From the sequence record PZ534534.1: a stretch of DNA of 64,000 bases; one strand, written 5' to 3'. The notes beneath the pieces are model-generated. The model was not told the origin of the DNA, did no database searches, and was given only the letters and a program-made list of their open reading frames with translations. Below are positions 5,201 through 51,639 of the stretch, in pieces. The position numbers and the translations under genes were made by a program. Within the stretch, counting starts at the first letter, position 1, and every line of letters begins with the position of its first letter. This stretch comes from a phage.

Positions 5201-7909
5201 CCTGAAACTTTAGGCAACGCTGTCGACCCCTATATCATCATGAGTGATCTAAGATCGAACATGGATGGAACATCCATATCTATGCAAGTTCCGGTAACAA
5301 ACGGATACAAGCGTGTTGTGATGATCATTAAGTGCGATCTGATAGGTAAGCAAGTTCTTGCAGAGAACGGAACTTCCACCCACCTATTTGAGACTGCTCT
5401 GCACTATCAGTTTGCTGATTCACCTTTTGCAGGGGATAAGAGAATATCTGACACAGACGCTGTGCGATGCAAGAAATTTATGCTAGGTGGTGGGTGGTGG
5501 TGGTATGAATTTGACTTAACAGACAAATTCACCGACACGTCTAAAGTAGTGACGGGGCTTCGTCTAGACCTTGGCGAAAACATGCACAAAAGTGTTTGTG
5601 ATGGCACCTACGGTGACCCAACAATCTACTTAAAGTATGTCTCTTTTGAGCACCCAGAGGATGTTGTTTATGGTCCAAAACTGAGACTGTTTGGCAATTG
5701 GATTGCTAAAGACAGGGTAGGTATGGGCAAGAAGGTAAGAGGCTTCTTAATAGATGCCGGTACAGAGGACATGCTAGTCAATGCAGTGTGGCCTGAATTA
5801 CCTGGGACTCAGTGGAACAACTCAGCCAAATCTATAAACTGGTTCAATATCCACAGGGCTATGTGGACAACCAACTGTTACCTGTGGAAAGAGCTGAATG
5901 ACGGCGCTTTCGGGTTCACAGGCGGCAGAAGAATGGCAATCATTTGCTGGACAACGTTGCAAAGATGTTATGACCATGACTACGAGATTGGAGGTAGGGC
6001 ATGGAAAAATATTAGGGATAGAATCATAACCAACTTTGCAGATCCTAACGGTGGTGGAGCGTATGGCTTCGACTGCAGCAGGCTCATCCATTTGAACGGA
6101 TCCTCTGCCTACAAGAAAGAAGGTTACTCTGGGTCTATGATAGAATGGGGCCTGGTGAAAGATGCTCGCGTGCTGATGGGTCAACAACTTGCTGCTGCAA
6201 TAGGTCCTAATGCAGTGCAATCTGTTAAACCTGCGTGGTTTGATATCCCATTGTGGTCATCCGGTACACCAGGAACTGCTGCAATCAACCCTACCACGGG
6301 GGATCTGGAAATCTCTTGGGAGGACTTGAAGCAGGTTGGAGGCTGGGATAAAACAGGGTATCAGGTCCAGTGGTGGAGGGCTGATGGATCTTTAGCCGCT
6401 GATGAGTTTGTTAAGGACAATTTCTACACCATGTCCTCTGCAAAAGCACAGGAATTGTTCGGTCAGGCAACTCCGTCAACGATCACCATGTCTATGTGCT
6501 GTAAAGACAACAGGACTGGAGCTTTGGGGCCAAGGGTTGCTAAAGTTTTCTCAGGTATTAAATGGAATCTACCTGTCCAAAGTATTTCATGGAAGCAAAT
6601 AGGTGATAACAAGCTGCTGGTTACCCCTGCCTGTCAGTTCAACGCAACTCTTAACGTTGATCCTGCTGTTGCGGCAAACTCAGCTAAAGCTTCTGACTTC
6701 TCTGTGTCTAACACTGCTATGGCAGATGTGAGGAAGATTGACACGCTGAACGCCAGAATTACCTGTAAAAACACTTATGGCACATTCCAAATCATCAACA
6801 ACTTCACAGATGCTGATTCTAAGGTAGTGAGGACAGCAAGCCAGACTCTGAGTTTAGGAACTCTGGCCTATGCGGCACTGATCACCGAACAGTCGGCAAC
6901 ACTCCAAGGAGGCGGTGTAGGCAAGTCCATTGCAACACCTGTGTGGAAGCCAAATGAGTGGGTTGTGTTTGATTTGACTGTGGACTTCTCCAGCGATAAT
7001 AACTGGACATGGGTAAGGAATTGTTTGTCACAGTTGATGGGCGGTCCAAGCTCCGTTAGTGATAGTCACGACTCTACTGACCCGAGTGTGTTCCAGGTAG
7101 GTAAAACTCACCCAGAGACTGGAGAAACGTTGCCTGACAGGAAGTATGCGTTGGTTTGCATCTCTTACGGGAAGGCAGATGTCACATTCTCAGGGACACA
7201 CACTTATAACGGAACTTACAACTTCTCAAGGAAGTATAGTCTCAAAGCAGGGAACATTATAGACGAGGTCGGTGTGCTGTATAATCCGGGCAACGGCATA
7301 GGGATTGTGGGCGGTAAACTGCAGATGCAGGAACCTTCTATCACCCCTTCCAACGTATCCGGGATTAGAAAGACTTGGGAAAGTAGTAATACCAACATTG
7401 CAACAGTGGATGCCACCACAGGGCTGGTAACATTTAAAGCTACTGGGAATGTCACCATAAAGTTTGTAGTTAGAGATGATGCAGGCCGCAAAACGTCTTC
7501 AACATCGTTTACTGTCAGACAGATGGCACCTCAGTGGTTTATTTGGGAAGGAAATCCTCTTGACGGGGCTTACCCTAGACCTGCAGGAACGTCCAATATG
7601 AGGGTCTTTACCGGTCCGGTCATGAACAATCCGACCACAACCACCAACCCTACATTTTTTGGTGCTTACATACCTGAAATTATTGGCCTACCAAGGAACC
7701 AGATACAACTGCTTTTCGGAGCAGGTGTTGATGGTCTAGCCACTTTTGGGTACAGTGACAACATTGATGCAGCCAGAAGCTCGGGTTGGATTGGATTTAA
7801 GTTTCAGTGGAACCCTGGTGGTAGAACATTAGGTGTTGCAAGCATAGGTGTTATGCTACCTGGTAACCAGCAATACCATCTCGAAGCTTATACAAACTTC
7901 CCTAGTTAA
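2282..7909 (+). CDS. giant tail fibre / host-recognition protein (1875 aa) with C-terminal bacterial Ig-like (BIG2-type) domain
   Basis: Single uninterrupted 5.6-kb ORF, GGAG RBS. C-terminal segment ...NVSGIRKTWESSNTNIATVDATTGLVTFKATGNVTIKFVVRDDAGRKTSSTSFTV matches the BIG2 Ig-like pattern (established family knowledge). N-terminal Gly/Asn repeats (LYGSGNNTYGSLHV) resemble RCC1-like propeller blades (weak). Tail-fibre role is inference. Confidence 0.6.
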   Translation: MLPIPLLKLGRHFLDKRGGIKELAVLSYPIDNSDGTSNTVSYVNSLAILFDDGQLNITGYNRFGECRTGDLDTINYPNEAAWNVDHVWRADRAFVIRTFDNKFFYIGCTAGLIGSEAAGGNDVCVREWTPLPEQIVTGLHLDTHPERLVEVMGGVNNTVWVIAAPEADGMLHLYGSGNNTYGSLHVDKSQHATPVKIGETSESPETGPWKNPRINCEVHDNSVIFGGPNGFWIAGYDFLRNNSRNDLVWPPVQITRNDLRGIPADEEWKGFMCGPNGAVIATQRMHRPDDQQLVNVFYGQNIWGDDTWRELNITYTHEVMMARGYGTSGIFFNNGTKQYRGFSRNLCNDIGAQSANNSPRADFIHYQALATAKYVEQRLPVSWTESVYFQGIHREGFLGTFTVVNGKLWWSGIPRGSFTGSNNLFGGRLNSQGFTEIPENWYKNVPVDSWGVEDIFDVNGVSSVSNIYIGDTVKMKLKPQPEGATFIIDKIELVNAAGTVVTDANYQFSTNWNHGGANEVVVTQYNRNVNRRGLYSVKITYHDKHGTGRTHTTRTLNWNTIVPAYPSDGKWHTVGRNKQFHVNDTVYFGLNGTQPAVEGDTSYMVRLHRMDAGSVTYDVTQEIYDQRRATYDNIVKTQALWEFNPNGKGGKMLQVNEQNGTSLTVHEHPDPWPDPGKPHPGARTLKIVSHDAGYFGIRWEATVRYVDGTTNNIGITLGGTSEDNSLKIAYTPRGISIDNMDVVRNGYGDVNVKVTLGEHLGGERIIMYAFDHDPRTNGTYANQAWSYLINAPEPNTKEFYYGMKRDVCKKTGTHDWIAICVKDERTAWDEPVNRWFIGIPTRSDKYVAEYIVCMGGTNLNMCWNEDVNKYSDYDYMRDYSCNLWFNQTTGYPPRQARVNPAIFTDTQVFLTKQANEVQTFKNKYDPNKWFYNCYGAFFWGPGELPGGGSCFEAATYASDRFMGQVKKYKIIPGPETLGNAVDPYIIMSDLRSNMDGTSISMQVPVTNGYKRVVMIIKCDLIGKQVLAENGTSTHLFETALHYQFADSPFAGDKRISDTDAVRCKKFMLGGGWWWYEFDLTDKFTDTSKVVTGLRLDLGENMHKSVCDGTYGDPTIYLKYVSFEHPEDVVYGPKLRLFGNWIAKDRVGMGKKVRGFLIDAGTEDMLVNAVWPELPGTQWNNSAKSINWFNIHRAMWTTNCYLWKELNDGAFGFTGGRRMAIICWTTLQRCYDHDYEIGGRAWKNIRDRIITNFADPNGGGAYGFDCSRLIHLNGSSAYKKEGYSGSMIEWGLVKDARVLMGQQLAAAIGPNAVQSVKPAWFDIPLWSSGTPGTAAINPTTGDLEISWEDLKQVGGWDKTGYQVQWWRADGSLAADEFVKDNFYTMSSAKAQELFGQATPSTITMSMCCKDNRTGALGPRVAKVFSGIKWNLPVQSISWKQIGDNKLLVTPACQFNATLNVDPAVAANSAKASDFSVSNTAMADVRKIDTLNARITCKNTYGTFQIINNFTDADSKVVRTASQTLSLGTLAYAALITEQSATLQGGGVGKSIATPVWKPNEWVVFDLTVDFSSDNNWTWVRNCLSQLMGGPSSVSDSHDSTDPSVFQVGKTHPETGETLPDRKYALVCISYGKADVTFSGTHTYNGTYNFSRKYSLKAGNIIDEVGVLYNPGNGIGIVGGKLQMQEPSITPSNVSGIRKTWESSNTNIATVDATTGLVTFKATGNVTIKFVVRDDAGRKTSSTSFTVRQMAPQWFIWEGNPLDGAYPRPAGTSNMRVFTGPVMNNPTTTTNPTFFGAYIPEIIGLPRNQIQLLFGAGVDGLATFGYSDNIDAARSSGWIGFKFQWNPGGRTLGVASIGVMLPGNQQYHLEAYTNFPS

Positions 7910-16975: not shown

Positions 16976-17245
16976 ATGTTATACCAGCAATATGAACTTC
17001 GTGCAGAAAAAGAGTTAAATTTTGACAAAGATATTCACAGATATTATTATGGGAAAGTTAGAGGGCAAGCAAGAAAGTGTACTCCAACACTCTTTTATGC
17101 CAGCAGACGACTAGCGCCAGAAGAGGCAACAGCAGAAAGGGTTGCGTACAACTGGAGAGTCACGTATGATATTGACAGATTCGATGTGATATCTGTTTTG
17201 GAAAACTTTGAAAACACTTACACACAAGTAGAGGACTTTTACTAA
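16976..17245 (+). CDS. hypothetical protein (89 aa)
   Basis: ORF; stop overlaps start of next gene. Confidence 0.5.
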   Translation: MLYQQYELRAEKELNFDKDIHRYYYGKVRGQARKCTPTLFYASRRLAPEEATAERVAYNWRVTYDIDRFDVISVLENFENTYTQVEDFY

Positions 17246-18429
17246 TGTCAAGAAACGTATTCGAAAGTGGTCAAATCACTGTCCGTGAGTTGCCAGCTAT
17301 TATTCAGTTTGCCCAACGTCATAGCCGATCTGTCCTAATTTTGGGACCAATGGGTGTGGGTAAAAGCCAGGTGATGAAGCAGATCGCTGATAATATGTTC
17401 GGTGAGCGAGATGACAACCTTGTTGACGTGCGACTGTCAGATAAAGATCCTGCCGACTTATCTGGGCTACCTATCCCTGTAGAAGCGGATGGAACTACAC
17501 GTACAGTGTTTGCAATTCCAGAATTTTGGCCTGCGGATCCTGACTGGAGCGGAATTATCTTTCTGGATGAGCTCACTCATGCAGATAACTACCTGCAAAA
17601 GGTTGCAATGCAAATTATGCTTGACCACAAGTGCGGCACCTATGCATTCCCTAAAGGTTCTGTTTTTGTGGCTGCGGGTAACCGTTCTACAGATGGTGCG
17701 GTTCTTTCGGCGCTCGAAGCCCCTCTGGCTAACCGTTTTATCATTGTAGAGGTTACAAGCAATGCAGAGGTGTTTATTGAGGACTACGCATTCCTCAACG
17801 GGGTTCACTCCTCTGTAATTGGGTATCTGAAAAGAGTTCCATCAGCTATTGATAATTATGAGGCTATGGCTGAGATTAATTGTCCATCTTTTGCCACACC
17901 ACGATCTTGGGTTGCTGCATCTGACATCTTGCACGATTTTGACAGCGGTATTATTTCTGACGCTATGGCCCGTGTTCTTCTACAAGGTGCTATTGGTCAC
18001 ACTGCAGCGGTAGAGATCTGGACTTACCACACCAAGAAACGTAATTTACCGGAAATCGGTCGGATTATGGCAGGTGGCTGCAAAGAATACGTAGGTCCTA
18101 AGCAGCCAGACATTTTGTGGATTCTTGGATCTGAAGGTTGTATCGCTATTCGCAATATGATGGAAAATGCAAGTATCTCAGACGAAGATCTTGTCAGCTG
18201 CGTGGCAAACTTCCTCGATTTCCTTTGGGAAAACTTCAAGGACGAGAACCGAGATTTTGTATTCTCAGTCTTTATGGCGATGATGAAACCTAATGCCTTA
18301 GGAAATGCCTTGCTTATCGGTAAAGGGCGTGACAAGATTGTTGCTCAGCTGATCAAAGCATACCCAAACCTGATGAAGATTGTAAAAGAGTTTGGTGAAG
18401 AGTTTAGCGCCATTTTGGCTAAAGCTTAA
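17245..18429 (+). CDS. MoxR-like AAA+ ATPase (AAA_5 type)
   Basis: Walker A LILGPMGVGKSQ and Walker B IIFLDELTHAD, then FVAAGNRSTDG arrangement typical of MoxR/CbbQ-type ATPases. Functional partner of vWA protein is inference. Confidence 0.65.
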   Translation: MSRNVFESGQITVRELPAIIQFAQRHSRSVLILGPMGVGKSQVMKQIADNMFGERDDNLVDVRLSDKDPADLSGLPIPVEADGTTRTVFAIPEFWPADPDWSGIIFLDELTHADNYLQKVAMQIMLDHKCGTYAFPKGSVFVAAGNRSTDGAVLSALEAPLANRFIIVEVTSNAEVFIEDYAFLNGVHSSVIGYLKRVPSAIDNYEAMAEINCPSFATPRSWVAASDILHDFDSGIISDAMARVLLQGAIGHTAAVEIWTYHTKKRNLPEIGRIMAGGCKEYVGPKQPDILWILGSEGCIAIRNMMENASISDEDLVSCVANFLDFLWENFKDENRDFVFSVFMAMMKPNALGNALLIGKGRDKIVAQLIKAYPNLMKIVKEFGEEFSAILAKA

Positions 18430-18439
18430 GGGGGGTTGT

Positions 18440-18820
18440 ATGGCTAAAGTAGGTAAGCGGGGAAACTACCTGGTGGTATTGACCGAGGAGCCGGAGAAGG
18501 AGTACGAATGCAGCTCCACTTGCGTGATCGATATCCGAGAAAAAGATGTAGATGAAGTCTGGTTTAAAATATTGGACGCTTGCGATAGCAGTGATTATTT
18601 CTTCATTTATGTCAACGATAAGGCTGGATTCTTCCATGACGACGGAGAGTTGCCGTATGAAATCTATGAACTTGTAGAGGCTTGCCATCGTGGAGATGCG
18701 GAGTTGTTTGGCCTACGGCTGAAAAGCGGTAAATTCTTCTATCAAGATGAGTGCATGAATCTTCATAACTTTGTAGAGGGAACTTGCAACGATGGAGAGA
18801 TTTTGGCACACTACGATTAA
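18440..18820 (+). CDS. hypothetical protein (126 aa)
   Basis: ATG with GGGGGG RBS (track start 18392 overlaps previous gene). Confidence 0.5.
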   Translation: MAKVGKRGNYLVVLTEEPEKEYECSSTCVIDIREKDVDEVWFKILDACDSSDYFFIYVNDKAGFFHDDGELPYEIYELVEACHRGDAELFGLRLKSGKFFYQDECMNLHNFVEGTCNDGEILAHYD

Positions 18821-18828
18821 TTTCTAAG

Positions 18829-18860
18829 ACCTCCCCCGCTTCGGCGGGGATTTTCTATTT
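18829..18860 (+). terminator. rho-independent terminator (UUCG tetraloop)
   Basis: CCCCGC-TTCG-GCGGGG hairpin followed by ATTTTCTATTT. Confidence 0.7.
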
Positions 18861-18869
18861 GGAGTCATT

Positions 18870-19370
18870 GTGAAAATTAAGATCTTTGCTATTATTTTGA
18901 GCGCACTTTTATCGCTGCCTGTTGTTGCAGCACCAAAACAAAAAGTATATCATACTTGCAAGCCATCAGATACTAAGGAAAACATTCTGGCATGCAATAT
19001 CTACAGGGAAGCTAGAGGAGATGGCACGATGGGTATGCTGGCATCTGGGTTTGCCACACTAAACAGGAAATCCCACCCTAAATACCCAGACACTATAAGA
19101 AAGATTGTCTACCAACCTAACCAGTTTTCGTGGACAAACCACGGCAAAACTTTTAAGGTGACAGAAAAAGATTCATGGGATCACGCTAAAAGTCTTGCAA
19201 AGATGCTTCTAAAGGTCTATAATAACAACCATGTTGCATACATGGCTATGGACATAACAGGTGGAGCAACACACTACCATACAACCAAAGTACGACCGAA
19301 ATGGGCAAAAAAGATGCAGAGGACAGCTCAATTCGGGAGCCATATCTACTACAAGGAGCGCAATAAATGA
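18870..19370 (+). CDS. secreted SleB-type cell-wall hydrolase (Hydrolase_2 family), candidate lysis enzyme
   Basis: GTG start after GGAG RBS; N-terminal signal peptide MKIKIFAIILSALLSLPVVAAP; EARGDG...LNRK...YPDTI...VYQPNQFSW matches conserved core of SleB-type hydrolases. Confidence 0.65.
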   Translation: MKIKIFAIILSALLSLPVVAAPKQKVYHTCKPSDTKENILACNIYREARGDGTMGMLASGFATLNRKSHPKYPDTIRKIVYQPNQFSWTNHGKTFKVTEKDSWDHAKSLAKMLLKVYNNNHVAYMAMDITGGATHYHTTKVRPKWAKKMQRTAQFGSHIYYKERNK

Positions 19371-21349
19371 TTGTAAACAGTAATGAAACTAAAGCGGTAC
19401 TAACCGGGAATATGGAGGTCACCAGGGGCTCAATTTCTCTGAACAAAGAGACTTTTGGGCTAATCATTAAAGGGATTTACGAAGATAAGGTGCTGGCAAG
19501 CTGCCGTGAACCAATCTTCAATGCCGTGGACTCCCATGTTGAGTCTGGACGGGGTGATGTACCGATCATTATTCACTCTCCTACAGACCTTGAACCATAC
19601 TTCTTTGTGCAGGACGTTGGATTGGGCATGTCAGAAGAGATGGTCCGCAACACTTTCATGAATCTCGGGGAGTCAACCAAGCGCAACAGCAACGCTCTGG
19701 TAGGTAATAAAGGTGTTGGTTCAAAGGCTCCGTTCAGTATGGTGGACACTTTCGATGTTATCAGTGTGCACAATGGTGTTGAAAGCACATATCTATTGTT
19801 CTTGGATCAGGGTATCCCAAACGTTACCAAGATCCGTGAGCGGAAGACTGAAGAGCACAACGGGGTAAAAGTTCAGTTCCATGTTAAGAAAGAGCATGTC
19901 CTGAAATATCGCACTGCTATTGCGTCATGCCTACGCTATGCAAAGTTTCCGTTTACCGTTACCGACCCTATGACCAGTAAGATGCTGGAAGGTGATAAGG
20001 TTGAGGCGCAGTATCACTACGAGAAGGATGGTTGGAAAATGACCATCCTGAAAGGTTATACCAGCTCTGATGAGAGCCGTGTGGTGATGGGACACCAACC
20101 TTACCGCTCTAAGTTTCTGGAAACATTGACAGACTACCCTGCAATCTGTGTAGAGATCCCTATCGGGGATTGCAATATTAACCCTGGGCGCGAATGGACC
20201 ATAGAGGGGCACGACGATGGTGGATTCCAAGAGCGTCTGGAGGCTTTTGTCAAAGAGGGTATCCGTCTTCGTGGGGCAGAAGTTGTTGCGGAATTGGAGA
20301 CAGCAAAAACATCCTCAGAAGCACGTGAGATGATGAAGAACAGTGGAGTGTTCGGGCACATCTTCGGTAAGAATTTTATGTGGGACAGATGGGAAGAAAC
20401 AGGGCTTGGCGACTTAGGCGATTGTGAAATTTTCGCTGGAGGCTTAAATAAAGGCCGCATAGGCTATGCTCGTTACGGAAAGTCGGAGTTCTTACGAGGT
20501 GTATACCTTGTATTTAACGACGGAGATGGCAAATATAACCGAAATAAGTGTAACTATTTAAGCGAAATCACCGGACGCAACGTTTTCTATTGCCGGAATA
20601 CGGATCTAGTGAAAGAGTTTAAAGAGGCGGCACACCATCCGTTCTTTGCAGATACTGTCAAATTGTTATCAGAGCTCCCTCGCCGACCTGCGAAGAAAGG
20701 TGAAACAAAAACTCATTACGAGCCAGGTTATTGGGTTAAAAAGCTTGAGAAGGATGGTTACTTCCGTCGTGAACGTATTACTAAGGCAGAGTTCAAGAAG
20801 ATTAAGCACTGCATTCCTTATGAAGGTGATATCCAACGTGGAAGTTGTTGGCTGGGACAGCTGAGTAACATCTACCAGCAAAATTATGACCGTGTGCGTG
20901 CGGCACTCCAGATTCCTGAAGGGGAAGACCTGTACCTGGTATCAGAATCCCGTCTGCTTTGGACTGATCCTGATTGCCAGTATGTTACAGAGAAAAATGT
21001 GGAACATTTGTTGAAAGAGGATGCTTGGAAATTCTTACTGACTCGCGCAGCAAATGAAACTTCATATGACAGCCTGTATAGACAATTAGGGAAAATTATT
21101 CCCATGCAAGATTTTGGAAATTATCGGCCACATTTCCACAAGTGGGAAGGTAACACCGCGTGGAAGCACAGTGAGCTAAATCATCGTGCCAAAATCTTAA
21201 TCGCCAACCGAGTTAAATGCGGGAAGGCCTATATTGCAAGATTGGAAAAGAAATACCCACTTTTGAAGCATGTAGGCTTGAAATATTGGGACACTCCTGC
21301 TATGATTGAATACCGTGAACTGATCGATACAAAGAATAACATCAAATAA
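19367..21349 (+). CDS. rIIA: rIIA-like protein with GHKL (Bergerat-fold) ATPase domain
   Basis: N-terminal VQDVGLGMSEEMVRNTFMNLGESTK...GNKGVGSKAPFSM fits GHKL G1/G2 boxes; size (660 aa) and position next to a second large gene fit phage rIIA/rIIB pairs. rIIA identity is inference. Confidence 0.45.
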   Translation: MIVNSNETKAVLTGNMEVTRGSISLNKETFGLIIKGIYEDKVLASCREPIFNAVDSHVESGRGDVPIIIHSPTDLEPYFFVQDVGLGMSEEMVRNTFMNLGESTKRNSNALVGNKGVGSKAPFSMVDTFDVISVHNGVESTYLLFLDQGIPNVTKIRERKTEEHNGVKVQFHVKKEHVLKYRTAIASCLRYAKFPFTVTDPMTSKMLEGDKVEAQYHYEKDGWKMTILKGYTSSDESRVVMGHQPYRSKFLETLTDYPAICVEIPIGDCNINPGREWTIEGHDDGGFQERLEAFVKEGIRLRGAEVVAELETAKTSSEAREMMKNSGVFGHIFGKNFMWDRWEETGLGDLGDCEIFAGGLNKGRIGYARYGKSEFLRGVYLVFNDGDGKYNRNKCNYLSEITGRNVFYCRNTDLVKEFKEAAHHPFFADTVKLLSELPRRPAKKGETKTHYEPGYWVKKLEKDGYFRRERITKAEFKKIKHCIPYEGDIQRGSCWLGQLSNIYQQNYDRVRAALQIPEGEDLYLVSESRLLWTDPDCQYVTEKNVEHLLKEDAWKFLLTRAANETSYDSLYRQLGKIIPMQDFGNYRPHFHKWEGNTAWKHSELNHRAKILIANRVKCGKAYIARLEKKYPLLKHVGLKYWDTPAMIEYRELIDTKNNIK

Positions 21350-21359
21350 GGAGACCAAG

Positions 21360-22565
21360 ATGATTTTCATCTACGAACATTTCAAAACCCGTAAAGAAGC
21401 ACGAGACCGCCGTGCAGAACTTGAGAAGAAGGGTTTCACATGTGCCATTGAGAAAGGCGACACAACCTGGACACTGGCAGTTGGTGCCCCAGAGTTGTTC
21501 GATCCTGACCGTGACAGCGTCTGCTACACCCGTGAGGATTTTGAAACCCGCGAAGAGGCCCGTTTATTTCGATACGGTCTGGAAGATAACGGTAAGTACG
21601 CCATGATCTTAGATTTAGGCGAAGGGTCCGTTAAACGTTGGGGCGTGGTATACCCACTGTGTGTTGTTCATGGTGTGGGGTTCACTGGGGTAGCAATCAA
21701 GTCAGAAGAACCTTTAGTAGAAGTCAAAGATCCGGTGCTGGAGGTGGTGAGCAGCGTATCTCAGCAACAGACTCGAAGTATTGAGCCTTTGGTAGTTATT
21801 TGTGGGGAACTCCTCCAGATCACCTGCAACGAAGGCATTTTTGAAATTCGCCGCAGCGAAAGTGAGGAAGTTTACCAGAAAGTCTTCGACCATATCTCTG
21901 TTCAGGAATATGATGAGGCAATTGGTGAAATCCTTGTCTGGCTGGAACGCAAGAATGAGTTCACCACACTTGCAGACAACCTGGTCATGAAAGATGGTAA
22001 GCTCTACTACTACGGTGTAGAGATGCGATCCACCATTGCAAAGAAAATTGAGAAAGATTATGCAGACGGAACACTGGATGACCGCTATGTGAAATTCCTC
22101 GTTCGCCTGCTGCGCAATCCTTCTGCAAAATCTGTAAACATGCTCTACGATTTTATGCAGGCCAACGATATCCAGATTGCAGAAGATGGTCGAATCATTT
22201 GCTACAAAGGGGTTCAGTTTAACGGCAGCAAGTGGGTGGATTGGCACAGTGGTAAAGTTCCACAATACCAGGGGGCTTTTGTATCCATGCCTCGTAACTT
22301 TGTAGAGGATGATCCGGAAGCTGCGTGCTCTTATGGCTTACACTGCGCCAGCAAAGAGTATGCAAAGAGCTACGGCACTGTAATGACTGTTATGGTTGAC
22401 CCTGCAGATGTGGTTAGTGTGCCATACCAACACAATAGCGCTAAGTGCCGTGCATGCCGCTATGAGATTGTGGTAGCTCCGGAAGCACGCAAAGATGGAG
22501 ACCCTATTGAATATGTAGTTGATCGTGACGGTAACACTATCGACATTCTTTACGAGGAGGCGTAA
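21360..22565 (+). CDS. hypothetical protein (401 aa), possibly rIIB-like by position
   Basis: Large ORF directly downstream of rIIA-like gene; no diagnostic motif recognised. Confidence 0.5.
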   Translation: MIFIYEHFKTRKEARDRRAELEKKGFTCAIEKGDTTWTLAVGAPELFDPDRDSVCYTREDFETREEARLFRYGLEDNGKYAMILDLGEGSVKRWGVVYPLCVVHGVGFTGVAIKSEEPLVEVKDPVLEVVSSVSQQQTRSIEPLVVICGELLQITCNEGIFEIRRSESEEVYQKVFDHISVQEYDEAIGEILVWLERKNEFTTLADNLVMKDGKLYYYGVEMRSTIAKKIEKDYADGTLDDRYVKFLVRLLRNPSAKSVNMLYDFMQANDIQIAEDGRIICYKGVQFNGSKWVDWHSGKVPQYQGAFVSMPRNFVEDDPEAACSYGLHCASKEYAKSYGTVMTVMVDPADVVSVPYQHNSAKCRACRYEIVVAPEARKDGDPIEYVVDRDGNTIDILYEEA

Positions 22566-48316: not shown

Positions 48317-48346
48317 TTAATCAGAACTGTAAAAGAGGTACATAGA

Positions 48347-48718
48347 ATGGAATTTATTATTTTGGCTGTATTGGTTGCCTTGTTTAACGCCTGGATCGCT
48401 GGCAAGATGGGAAGATCCGCCTTTTTATGGTTTATTATATCTATTTTCCTGGGGGTGGTTGCAACTATTGTATTGGTTATCCTTGCAATTGTTGACAAGG
48501 GGAATAATAGAAAGGGTAAAGTATTTTCAGACCTGTACGACGCTCAAACGTTTGTCAACGCCTATTATAGTGATCTTCCAGTCTCCCTACGTTGCAGCCT
48601 TGCACAACAGGTTTTCGATGAAGCTAAAACCAGAGATCACGCCCATGAGATTTGTTTAACTGAGGCGGATCGCTTATTTGAGAGGAATAGAAAATATGTG
48701 GGCCAGCCGTTTAAATAA
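48347..48718 (+). CDS. membrane protein (123 aa, two predicted TM segments)
   Basis: ATG after AAAAGAGG; MEFIILAVLVALFNAWIAG and FLWFIISIFLGVVATIVLVILAIV hydrophobic segments. Confidence 0.5.
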   Translation: MEFIILAVLVALFNAWIAGKMGRSAFLWFIISIFLGVVATIVLVILAIVDKGNNRKGKVFSDLYDAQTFVNAYYSDLPVSLRCSLAQQVFDEAKTRDHAHEICLTEADRLFERNRKYVGQPFK

Positions 48719-51354: not shown

Positions 51355-51639
51355 ATGAAAAAGATGATCGCAGTGGTTGCCCTAGTTGTTGGACTTAATG
51401 CGCCTGTAATGGCCAAAGAGCTGGCAAAAGAGGTTAATCTAACGGATATTCATGCCGTCAATCGAATCGGGGTTACTTATCGCTTATGCCTTGCCACTAA
51501 AACTTTTAAGGACGGCACAACAGAGTACTACGGATTCGAGGGTGTCCGGTGCGGTGAGCTTGCTCGCGACCTTAAGGAAGATCCAGACCTGGAAGATCTG
51601 CCCATCACCGTAAACGGTAAAGCTTACGTAAACCGTTAA
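51355..51639 (+). CDS. secreted small protein with signal peptide (94 aa)
   Basis: AAAGAGGA RBS; N-terminal MKKMIAVVALVVGLNAPVMA signal-peptide-like segment. Confidence 0.55.
   Translation: MKKMIAVVALVVGLNAPVMAKELAKEVNLTDIHAVNRIGVTYRLCLATKTFKDGTTEYYGFEGVRCGELARDLKEDPDLEDLPITVNGKAYVNR

Follow-up and report, generated by a model that had tools for sequence, protein, structure and literature searches.

Lys44 of the Oenococcus phage fOg44 is exported by the Sec pathway and cleaved by signal peptidase; it is the sole endolysin of its phage, with a Gram-positive host and a fold other than that of the enzyme described here. The SAR endolysins, such as P1 Lyz and phage 21 R, keep an uncleaved SAR domain, rich in Gly, Ala and Ser, that tethers the inactive enzyme. 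Large virulent phages, T5 and PAK_P3 among them, repeatedly carry within their replication genes a gene that combines an export signal with a Hydrolase_2 domain. In the rV5 group, gp2 of rV5 has carried a Hydrolase_2 “cell wall hydrolase” annotation since 2013, and a 2020 publication on phage CB7 assigned a predicted signal peptide to the orthologue CB7_83, stated as data not shown that it is toxic when expressed in E. coli, and reported its conservation in all Vequintavirinae genera. A 2026 PNAS paper on “toxic phage products” concerns T5 pre-early genes, not this hydrolase.

We analyzed a 64,000-nucleotide stretch of phage DNA (sequence record PZ534534.1), hereafter the window, which is a Vequintavirus sequence 98.7% identical to MaxTheCat. 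Its hydrolase gene is the same gene as rV5 gp2, MaxTheCat bas57_0064, Pectobacterium CB7_83 and Cronobacter CR3_087, and all of it, from gene to domain to signal peptide, is already annotated and published and is not new. The protein is 98-99% identical to those of the rV5 group. The gene, which 116 Vequintavirus records contain, differs from that of MaxTheCat by nine synonymous changes and one non-synonymous, conservative change; by sequence comparison, it is under purifying selection. A word-indexed homologue search returned 10 proteins only, and the family was then gathered by exhaustive search. The features of the locus, with the more distant holin candidate, are as follows.

18834..18858, plus strand: terminator-like hairpin, CCCCGC-UUCG-GCGGGG with a T-rich tail (terminator scan, RNA fold, sequence)
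18862..18865, plus strand: Shine-Dalgarno sequence GGAG, 4 nt ahead of the hydrolase GTG (sequence)
18870..19370, plus strand: hydrolase gene, orthologue of rV5 gp2 and MaxTheCat bas57_0064 (ORF list, Pfam, PHROG, homologue searches)
18870..18929, plus strand: signal peptide, residues 1-20, MKIKIFAIILSALLSLPVVA (rule-based), with a predicted signal peptidase I cut after A20, V-V-A/A-P
18930..19367, plus strand: predicted mature periplasmic enzyme, 146 aa, 16.9 kDa, pI 9.95, net charge about +16, if processed as predicted
18957-18959 and 18993-18995, plus strand: Cys30 and Cys42, the only cysteines of the hydrolase, a candidate periplasmic disulfide
18981..19355, plus strand: Hydrolase_2 / SleB-fold catalytic domain, about residues 38-162 (Pfam, SleB alignment, conservation, AlphaFold2)
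19008..19010, plus strand: codon of Glu47, the predicted catalytic Glu, in the motif Y-R-E-A-R-G-D (alignment with SleB, conservation)
19195..19223, plus strand: sigma-70-like site TTGCAA-17-TATAAT, 10/12 matches, within the hydrolase gene towards its 3′ end (promoter scan)
19367..21349, plus strand: rIIA, whose start shares ATGA with the hydrolase stop (profile match, sequence)
21360..22565, plus strand: rIIB (phrog_609, E=9e-62)
48344..48718, plus strand: homologue of the MaxTheCat “putative holin” bas57_0112, with two N-terminal TMDs (phrog_13090, function unknown)

The precursor is a protein of 166 aa (19.0 kDa, pI 10.0) encoded from a GTG start. Its gene sits among replication and anti-defence genes, the replication setting having been recognized in a previous sequence-only reading of this DNA; it shares a transcription unit with rIIA/B, helicase, primase and polymerase, the Dda/PIF1 helicase gene lying downstream of rIIA and rIIB. 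The overlap of the rIIA start with the hydrolase stop suggests translational coupling, and in the Vequintavirus EdH4, rIIA/rIIB counter lambda RexAB and are otherwise dispensable. That reading had set the gene between a MoxR-like ATPase and a rIIA-like gene, which is correct on the rIIA side but not on the other, where an uncharacterized ORF of 126 aa (18440-18820) intervenes between the ATPase gene (17245-18429) and the hydrolase. It had also stated that no holin is adjacent, and indeed no plausible membrane-protein ORF flanks the hydrolase on the coding strand in the window. A two-gene module common to T5, made up of the 126-aa gene (gp3) and the hydrolase, was rejected: gp3 compared with the T5 neighbour gives a BLASTP E value of 0.53, and the tblastn matches of gp3 are confined to Vequintavirus. 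In Table S3 of the rV5 report, “T5.083” stands on the gp3 row; T5.083 is the Hydrolase_2 gene of T5 itself, and the entry is most likely a homologue listed against the wrong row.

Four relatives that belong to the Vequintavirinae or stand near them, namely A73, SSBI34, L017 and Certrevirus, have other surroundings of the gene. In them, a small two-TMD holin-like ORF lies directly 3′ of the hydrolase gene, and rIIA/B may be absent, whereas in this phage the hydrolase overlaps rIIA through ATGA and no two-TMD ORF follows. In these four, and also in ACP17, the two-TMD ORF overlaps the hydrolase gene. Its position next to the gene in the four relatives points towards a link with lysis. Searching the window for a relocated homologue by tblastn and phmmer --max yielded nothing below E=0.2, a weak negative given that short membrane proteins diverge fast.

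The N-terminus, MKIKIFAIILSALLSLPVVA followed by APKQK, has an n-region of charge +2, an h-region of 15 residues, Pro at -4 and V-x-A at -3/-1. The h-region, IFAIILSALLSLPVV, is strongly hydrophobic (I, L, V or F at 10 of 15 positions, G, A, S or T at four). We called the signal peptide by sequence rules, with orthologue conservation as backing, and both agree with the classical signal peptide proposed earlier: as in a lysin of the Lys44 type, the signal is predicted to be of the cleavable type I. Every orthologue examined has an equivalent signal, sequence divergence notwithstanding. Equivalent signals occur in SSBI34, VEcB, P8734, A73, L017, T5.083, Cr30, YB07, ACP17 and F88, and of the 150 family representatives nearest to the hydrolase, 146 have an N-terminal export signal. 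The pLDDT of the hydrolase model averages 47 and 56 over residues 1-10 and 11-20, and is at least 84 from residue 21 onward. One published blanket statement, of ambiguous scope, runs contrary to a type I signal peptide. A lipoprotein was rejected, there being no lipobox beside the h-region, as was a SAR endolysin: SAR endolysins, as predicted also for the window hydrolase, reach the murein of Gram-negative hosts by Sec and without a holin, but the h-region of the window hydrolase is not SAR-like in composition, and a good V-x-A site, V-V-A/A-P, comes after it. A canonical holin-dependent endolysin would be cytoplasmic and without signal, at odds with the classical signal peptide, and no holin or spanin gene adjoins the hydrolase in the window. 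Nor does the hydrolase fit a virion-associated lysin: its gene belongs to the replication region and not to a tail or baseplate module, and a signal peptide cannot be reconciled with virion assembly in the cytoplasm. The baseplate holds other wall-hydrolase candidates, and in the rV5 supplementary files, MS data included, a search by term found “hydrolase” in the gene table only, a negative of little weight.

The mature part matches Pfam Hydrolase_2 (PF07486) over residues 51-161 with E=2.1e-19 and 70.4 bits, above the cut-off of 27, as well as PHROG 938 (E=1.6e-27) and, by sequence, the catalytic domains of SleB in 4F55 and 4FET. The AlphaFold2 model has a pLDDT of 88, and in a fold search of the PDB these same two structures were the sole matches at E<=0.001 (TM 0.74-0.79). 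E47 aligns to the first Glu of YGESRGE in the catalytic domains of B. cereus and B. anthracis SleB, which we take to be the SleB catalytic residue. It is kept in 154 of 155 aligned relatives, R66 and H158 are kept in all 155, and the near-invariant residues E47, R49, N65, R66, Q85-W88, P143, W145 and H158 are all present in the hydrolase. Profile score, fold and an intact active-site Glu thus agree on the Hydrolase_2 (SleB-like) core that had been read from the letters. We infer that the protein is a small, very basic enzyme of the Hydrolase_2 (SleB/CwlJ catalytic-domain) family that cleaves the glycan strands of peptidoglycan. The SleB domain has been placed in the lytic transglycosylase class, and the predicted mode of cutting, at the MurNAc-GlcNAc bond, is probably that of a lytic transglycosylase.

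The hydrolase is, however, not a true SleB, since it falls below the cut-off of the SleB equivalog TIGR02869 of NCBIfam (48.3 bits against 236.5, over profile positions 82-201 only) and has no N-terminal peptidoglycan-binding domain, the Pfam search yielding Hydrolase_2 only. Residues 21-37 form in the model a short linker after the signal peptide. Despite the shared fold and the motif Y-x-E-[AS]-R-G-[ED], identity to Bacillus SleB is 24%, and the muramic-delta-lactam of the spore cortex, the substrate of SleB, is absent from E. coli. The Cys30/Cys42 pair is kept in SSBI34, VEcB, P8734, A73 and L017, while most other exported relatives have another pair, at columns 39 and 77 (each in 109 of 155 sequences). 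The copies of VEN and AS51, which are signal-less, have on inspection no Cys at the positions of either pair.

The nearest parallels in other phages share both the domain and the setting, with the same placement in T5, PAK_P3, Cr30, YB07, ACP17 and F88. T5.083, a second wall hydrolase that lies far from the T5 lys-holin cassette, is about 40% identical over the catalytic domain and has a classical cleavable signal peptide (SSQA/SH) as in the window hydrolase, but it has a Cys39/Cys77-type pair in place of C30/C42 and no rII neighbours. The Nankokuvirus PAK_P3 encodes gp151, about 36% identical to the window hydrolase, among ligase, DprA and helicase genes, and has besides it a separate late endolysin-spanin cassette (gp28-spanin), again a pattern of two lysins. 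The N-terminal hydrophobic segment of gp151 differs in being longer and weaker; no cleavage site is evident in it, and it resembles an anchor or a SAR domain. Like Lys44, these rV5-like enzymes would reach their substrate by Sec and signal peptidase and not through a holin hole; unlike Lys44, they coexist with a canonical endolysin, and such coexistence was found in three of the three groups checked (T5, rV5-like phages and PAK_P3).

Vequintaviruses have no lysis cassette, the genes for their endolysin, putative holin and spanins being distributed over three separate loci. The MaxTheCat endolysin is a homologue of lambda R (1AM7, E=3e-56), and LysECP26, an rV5-like version of this type, has been purified and is lytic in vitro, where it required outer-membrane permeabilisers. 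The homologue of the MaxTheCat putative holin lies in the window far from the hydrolase (48344..48718), its identity as a holin being putative. The position of the hydrolase outside a lysis cassette, which had been pointed out earlier, is thus ordinary for phages of this genus. The proposal that the hydrolase is the exported endolysin of the phage keeps its export signal and probably loses the role of main lysin, a separate lambda-R-type endolysin being at hand. A separate canonical lysis cassette, sufficient by itself, had been named as what would count against that proposal; the canonical endolysin goes part of the way, its sufficiency aside.

We then considered expression. The hairpin, which adjoins the ribosome-binding site on its 5′ side, is also found in MaxTheCat and has an analogue in the Klebsiella phage P8734, and it would act as a terminator. 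This hairpin immediately upstream and the GTG start suggest that expression of the hydrolase is probably low; GTG or TTG starts occur in four of the six Vequintavirinae-related lineages examined. The promoter scan of the window found no convincing sigma-70 promoter between the hairpin and the hydrolase start, while SSBI34, A73 and VEcB have near-consensus sigma-70 promoters immediately upstream of the gene. The sigma-70-like site at 19195..19223, about 145 nt upstream of rIIA and identical in MaxTheCat, is a consensus match only, and the scan gave 14 sites in total against 11.6 expected by chance. PAK_P3 gp151 RNA stands at the same level at 3.5 and 13 min, and in the literature searched we found no direct RNA or protein timing data for any Vequintavirus. 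Genome-wide CRISPRi-ART data cover the hydrolase gene in T5 and not in EdH4. Knock-down of T5.083 scored “Not Fit”, so that a contribution to laboratory fitness was not detected; T5 lys and several virion genes likewise scored “Not Fit”, which indicates a low sensitivity, and the T5 holin scored “Fit”.

Based on these data, we tentatively favor the explanation, which may well be right but which we do not hold firmly, that the hydrolase is a Sec-exported periplasmic accessory lysin and not the main endolysin. The protein would carry a classical type I signal peptide when synthesized and would leave the cytoplasm through Sec, so that it would reach the murein without a holin. Signal peptidase I would cut the precursor after Ala20, releasing a soluble 16.9-kDa periplasmic hydrolase, probably stabilized by a Cys30-Cys42 disulfide. 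It would be transcribed alongside replication and anti-defence genes rather than with late structural genes, probably at a low dose. By nicking or weakening the sacculus, the exported enzyme may speed up lysis or make it more robust after the holin has fired. The principal agent of lysis would be the cytoplasmic lambda-R-type endolysin, with holin and spanins. An active periplasmic muramidase present from early infection should be lethal, and the accessory-lysin explanation therefore assumes a low dose or a restricted (e.g., exolytic) activity.

Alternatively, the hydrolase may be a periplasmic factor that remodels the murein of the infected cell in early or mid-infection and is not a lysis enzyme, which we regard as unlikely, though worth serious consideration. 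Candidate tasks are muropeptide release or turnover, a block of septation, cell enlargement, or an envelope change directed against superinfection or defence. This would suit a gene coupled to rIIA among replication and anti-defence genes, a placement that recurs in T5, PAK_P3, Cr30, YB07, ACP17 and F88, as well as the complete canonical lysis genes that T5, rV5-like phages and PAK_P3 already possess. PAK_P3 gp151, transcribed early and late alike, is not late-specific, and its authors tied it to the accumulation of wall precursors in infection, but that link is their speculation and we know of no precedent for such a factor. Moreover, the holin-like ORF beside the gene in four relatives favors lysis, and members of the family serve lysis elsewhere, signal-less ones occupying the lysis position in Vibrio podophages and a Hydrolase_2 protein being the only endolysin candidate of pf16.

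The reports on Vequintavirinae bear on more than one explanation: the Hydrolase_2 enzyme is the one wall hydrolase reported across all genera, whereas the second wall hydrolase varies in type in Certrevirus. This is in keeping with remodelling, and equally with a principal endolysin that is exported by Sec, accumulates in the periplasm and is set free once a holin or pinholin dissipates the membrane potential; the enzyme of the lambda-R type would then be accessory or redundant. This principal-endolysin explanation we consider somewhat less probable still. It would account for the overlapping two-TMD ORF of A73, SSBI34, L017, Certrevirus and ACP17 and for the toxicity of the expressed orthologue; it has in pf16 a phage whose sole endolysin candidate is of this family, and the “Fit” holin and “Not Fit” lys of T5 are compatible with redundant lysins. 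However, this phage has no holin-like gene next to the hydrolase and no detectable relocated homologue of one, it possesses a lambda R homologue of a type that is lytic in vitro, knock-down of T5.083 had no measurable effect, and the probable pre-late expression fits a main lysis enzyme poorly.

An enzyme secreted or released to attack neighbouring cells, e.g., as a cationic lysin that works from without once its own host has burst, is very improbable: the mature protein is indeed very basic (pI 9.95, net charge about +16) and Hydrolase_2 lysins from Gram-negative phages have been noted for high positive charge, but in a Gram-negative host a Sec signal leads only to the periplasm, and the outer membrane of the neighbours bars access, as the need of LysECP26 for permeabilisers illustrates, so this part of the sequence-only reading finds no support. 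T4 Spackle is an early periplasmic protein that acts on lysozymes, and a catalytically dead or binding-only protein, such as an inhibitor or decoy, has in it a precedent and otherwise nothing specific in its favor; with every near-invariant residue kept, E47, R66 and H158 included, and the gene under purifying selection, it is the least credible explanation of all.

Taken together, the finding itself is ordinary, and its residual value is a well-posed question about the role of the exported enzyme, which can be addressed directly, as both CRISPRi-ART and Cas13a editing have already been used on the Vequintavirus EdH4. A lysin predicted to be holin-independent, targeted to the periplasm and strongly cationic may also be of interest for enzybiotic design. 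Several unrelated families of virulent coliphages and Pseudomonas phages retain a predicted Sec-exported wall hydrolase under purifying selection, and T5, rV5-like phages and PAK_P3 keep theirs despite a complete canonical lysis system. It is possible, though on balance unlikely, that signal-bearing Hydrolase_2 proteins are conserved early or middle periplasmic factors of unrelated large virulent phages, whose job would be sacculus remodelling or that of a redundant lysin, not the final burst. The phages that would be taken in by such a class all have Gram-negative hosts and comprise T5-like, rV5-like, phi92-like and PAK_P3-like phages, Cr30, ACP17 and others. Redundancy of lysins, if true, would explain why knock-down of the T5 endolysin carries no fitness cost while knock-down of the holin is costly.

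Escherichia phage MaxTheCat, a member of the genus Vequintavirus, is 98.7% identical to this region, and the rV5-like genomes that match the region at 95% or above number more than 100. The hydrolase gene lies exactly where the sequence-only reading had placed it, and its product is 98-99% identical to rV5-like copies labeled “cell wall hydrolase,” “SleB,” or “endolysin.” It differs from the MaxTheCat gene by nine synonymous changes and one conservative non-synonymous change and, judged by this comparison, is under purifying selection. The same protein appears as gp2, with PF07486, in the 2013 rV5 gene table (PMC3606486). The 2020 paper on phage CB7 (Certrevirus) reported a SleB-like protein in all Vequintavirinae genera, toxic when expressed in E. 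coli (“data not shown”), with a predicted signal peptide in the CB7 orthologue CB7_83; a 2025 paper described “two endolysins” in BME3 and PVP-SE1, the second being SleB-like and in the replication module. Since domain, signal peptide, toxicity, and location are thus in print, the earlier finding is correct but already published and annotated, and its interpretation is borne out in part. The homologue “T5.083” stands on the gp3 row of rV5 Table S3 (PMC3606486, supplementary file 3) and most likely belongs to the gp2 row, because T5.083 is the Hydrolase_2 gene of T5, in which no homologue of gp3 could be detected. In GenBank MG065644-MG065682, 16 records labeled as Campylobacter jejuni phages (including C2, C5, D1, and A112b) are ~97% identical to this rV5-like E. 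coli phage over 5.6 kb, probably reflecting wrong host labels or contaminated preparations.

The proposed SleB-type core is confirmed by profile score, motif, and predicted fold. Residues 51-161 match Pfam Hydrolase_2 (PF07486; E=2.1e-19, 70.4 bits against a cut-off of 27), the protein matches PHROG 938 (E=1.6e-27), and its sequence can be aligned with the crystallized SleB catalytic domains 4F55 and 4FET. These are also the only PDB matches at E<=0.001 of its AlphaFold2 model (pLDDT 88, pTM 0.80), with TM scores of 0.74-0.79 and an rmsd of 2.7 A to 4FET. The protein is a Hydrolase_2 member and not a SleB equivalog, scoring 48 bits against 236.5 and having no binding domain. Of the 11,355 family representatives that an exhaustive search retrieved at E<1e-3, the best 150 were aligned with the hydrolase, its homologues from T5, PAK_P3, and VEN, and the catalytic domain of B. 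cereus SleB (155 sequences). Glu47, in a Y-x-E-A-R-G motif aligning to SleB YGESRGE, is kept in 154 of them, and Arg66 and His158 in all 155. Because every near-invariant residue of this alignment is retained, the hydrolase appears competent for catalysis. The SleB domain itself is assigned to the lytic transglycosylases.

The N terminus reads MKIKIFAIILSALLSLPVVA/APKQK, with predicted cleavage at the slash. It has an n-region of charge +2, an h-region of 15 residues, 10 of them strongly hydrophobic, V-x-A at -3/-1, and Pro at -4, Pro occurring on the + side only at +2. By these sequence rules, rather than by a SignalP score, it is a classical SPase I signal. SAR domains are Gly/Ala/Ser-rich and uncleaved, and the h-region and cleavage site exclude this type; a lipobox reading was also rejected. 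Orthologues at 41-59% identity keep the signal architecture with different sequences, and an export signal was found heuristically in 146 of the 150 nearest representatives (best 150 of 11,355). Rules, orthologues, and the CB7_83 prediction together uphold the signal peptide; one published blanket statement to the contrary, ambiguous in scope, was weighed lightly. C30 and C42, the only cysteines, are conserved in the Vequintavirinae-type clade, most other exported relatives have a different pair (columns 39 and 77, 109/155 sequences each), and signal-less copies from Vibrio podophages have no Cys at the positions of either pair, a distribution that fits oxidative folding in the periplasm. The protein belongs neither to the canonical cytoplasmic nor to the SAR endolysins; by sequence alone, it resembles Lys44-type Sec-exported, processed lysins.

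Relatives: signal end of the orthologue; element upstream of the hydrolase gene; ORF directly 3′
SSBI34 (Salmonella phage): ...APALA/KE; promoter TTGACA-17-TATACT; L007:3932-4162, 76 aa, two TMDs, unannotated, ATGA overlap with the hydrolase stop
A73: ...VTYA/KE; promoter TTGACA-17-TAAGCT; A73_74, 70 aa, two TMDs
VEcB: ...VVAQA/EA; promoter TTGCAA-17-TACAAT
P8734 (Klebsiella phage): ...PVLA/KD; similar hairpin; L009:3952-4107, 51 aa, hydrophobic, unannotated
Metagenomic contig L017: ORF 6583-6813, 76 aa, two TMDs

Features of the hydrolase locus
17245-18429, ATPase upstream of the hydrolase (phrog_1297; “MoxR” in rV5 and BASEL annotations)
18834-18858 (+), strong GC-rich hairpin with UUCG loop and T-run, ~12 nt upstream of the ribosome-binding site of the hydrolase gene
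18870..19370 (+), hydrolase, 166 aa, GTG start, GGAG four bases before

The replication-module location is likewise borne out, with a 126-aa ORF of unassigned function, restricted to Vequintavirus, also lying between ATPase and hydrolase. The rIIA start overlaps the hydrolase stop (ATGA), followed by rIIB, a Dda/PIF1 helicase, a primase-helicase, and DNA polymerase, and the rV5 authors assigned these genes to one of the genome's four transcription units, apart from the late structural unit. The order of hydrolase upstream of (rIIA-rIIB-)helicase is kept down to 45% identity in Vequintavirinae and close relatives. We found no convincing promoter between hairpin and ribosome-binding site, so transcripts must start farther upstream and cross the hairpin, one candidate promoter being that at 17022 (TTGACA-17-TATTAT). 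In sister genera (SSBI34, A73, VEcB), a near-consensus sigma-70 promoter lies directly upstream of the gene, its -10 box falling inside the equivalent hairpin in SSBI34 and A73. We infer from these sites that unmodified host RNA polymerase would transcribe the gene, and that expression would therefore not be late-only; with GTG or TTG starts in four of six lineages examined in or near Vequintavirinae, the dose would seem deliberately low.

Within the gene, a sigma-70-like site (TTGCAA-17-TATAAT, 19195-19223, +), ~145 nt upstream of rIIA and identical in MaxTheCat, might, as a consensus match only, give an rIIA/B transcript independent of the hydrolase. Residues 8-42 of rIIB (21360-22565, +), whose N terminus has two apparent F-x-T-R-x-E-A-R repeats, give a sub-threshold SPOR-domain match (E=0.0014, 19.3 bits against 21). 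SPOR domains bind denuded glycan strands, and such a match beside a glycan-cleaving enzyme would be notable but may be chance. In the Vequintavirus EdH4, rIIA/rIIB act against lambda RexAB and are not needed otherwise.

That the gene lies outside a lysis cassette is true but no anomaly in itself, as Vequintaviruses have none and their lysis genes are scattered. MaxTheCat carries, by annotation, i- and o-spanins adjoining terminase, a putative holin at 84.1 kb, and, at 124.6 kb (counterpart outside the window), a 156-aa endolysin homologous to lambda R (1AM7, E=3e-56). LysECP26, 98% identical to this endolysin, was purified and lyses outer-membrane-permeabilized Gram-negative bacteria. The proposed holins differ: the window homologue (48344-48718, +) is a “putative holin” in BASEL genomes and belongs to phrog_13090, a PHROG without assigned function, whereas the rV5 paper proposed the 78-aa gp129. 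Between 48.7 and 51.8 kb there are several more small membrane ORFs, a 94-aa protein (51355-51639, +; phrog_9845, without assigned function) has a predicted classical signal peptide, MKKMIAVVALVVGLNAPVMA/KE, and the baseplate module holds two more wall-hydrolase candidates.

We tentatively favor, at somewhat under even odds, a model in which the hydrolase would be exported by Sec, processed by SPase, and soluble in the periplasm, where this glycan-cleaving enzyme, made at low dose from replication-region transcripts, would act without a holin as an accessory lysin alongside the endolysin of lambda-R type. The model is weakest in explaining why the cell would tolerate an active murein hydrolase before lysis; a low dose, or some restriction on how the enzyme acts, is assumed.

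Export-signal-bearing Hydrolase_2 genes lie among replication/recombination genes in many large virulent phages, including T5 (T5.083), PAK_P3 (gp151, between ligase and DprA/helicase), Cr30 (gp191), YB07 (gp174), ACP17 (gp140), and F88_0212. T5 has in addition a canonical lys and holin cassette, and PAK_P3 a DUF3380 endolysin (gp28) with spanins. By contrast, the Vibrio podophages VEN and AS51 carry theirs, which are signal-less, near the end of the genome record, presumably the lysis-gene position of such phages, and the VEN copy adjoins a membrane protein gene. For PAK_P3 gp151, RNA levels are unchanged between 3.5 and 13 min (log2FC 0.62, p=0.28), and the PAK_P3 authors speculated that gp151 explains wall-precursor build-up during infection. 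These data and the genomic placement also suit a non-lytic murein remodeling factor, which we consider unlikely but the closest competitor. A SleB-domain protein of PA5oct was not found in virions. In a transcriptome-wide CRISPRi-ART screen of T5, T5.083 and the canonical endolysin lys (T5.040) were “Not Fit” and holin T5.041 “Fit” (PMC11879866), a pattern that two redundant lysins could produce, as could low sensitivity of the screen, and that is no evidence for redundancy: several virion and replication genes also scored “Not Fit,” and the method misses some known essential genes (shown for T4).

Slightly less probable than murein remodeling is the alternative that the protein is the main endolysin, of the Sec type and set off by a holin or pinholin. 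In favor of this are the occurrence of the gene in every Vequintavirinae genus and a small two-TMD partner ORF directly 3′ of the hydrolase in relatives within or close to the subfamily, often with stop/start overlap. The SSBI34 and P8734 ORFs are positional equivalents of A73_74, the L017 ORF, and the two-TMD “class II holin” candidate of CB7, which the CB7 paper found overlapping the SleB-like gene in Certrevirus; in ACP17, a two-TMD ORF overlaps the hydrolase start instead. In phage pf16, a Hydrolase_2 protein is the sole candidate for an endolysin. This alternative fits the window phage poorly: unlike A73, SSBI34, L017, and Certrevirus, the window has no adjacent two-TMD ORF, as the sequence-only reading had noted of a holin, and no detectable relocated homologue. 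Action on neighboring cells, also suggested there, is very improbable, since Sec delivers to the periplasm only, and a catalytically inactive binder, given the intact active site, even more so.

The Sec-exported accessory lysin would be one case of a second, exported wall hydrolase that recurs in virulent phages, and this recurrence is a tractable research question.
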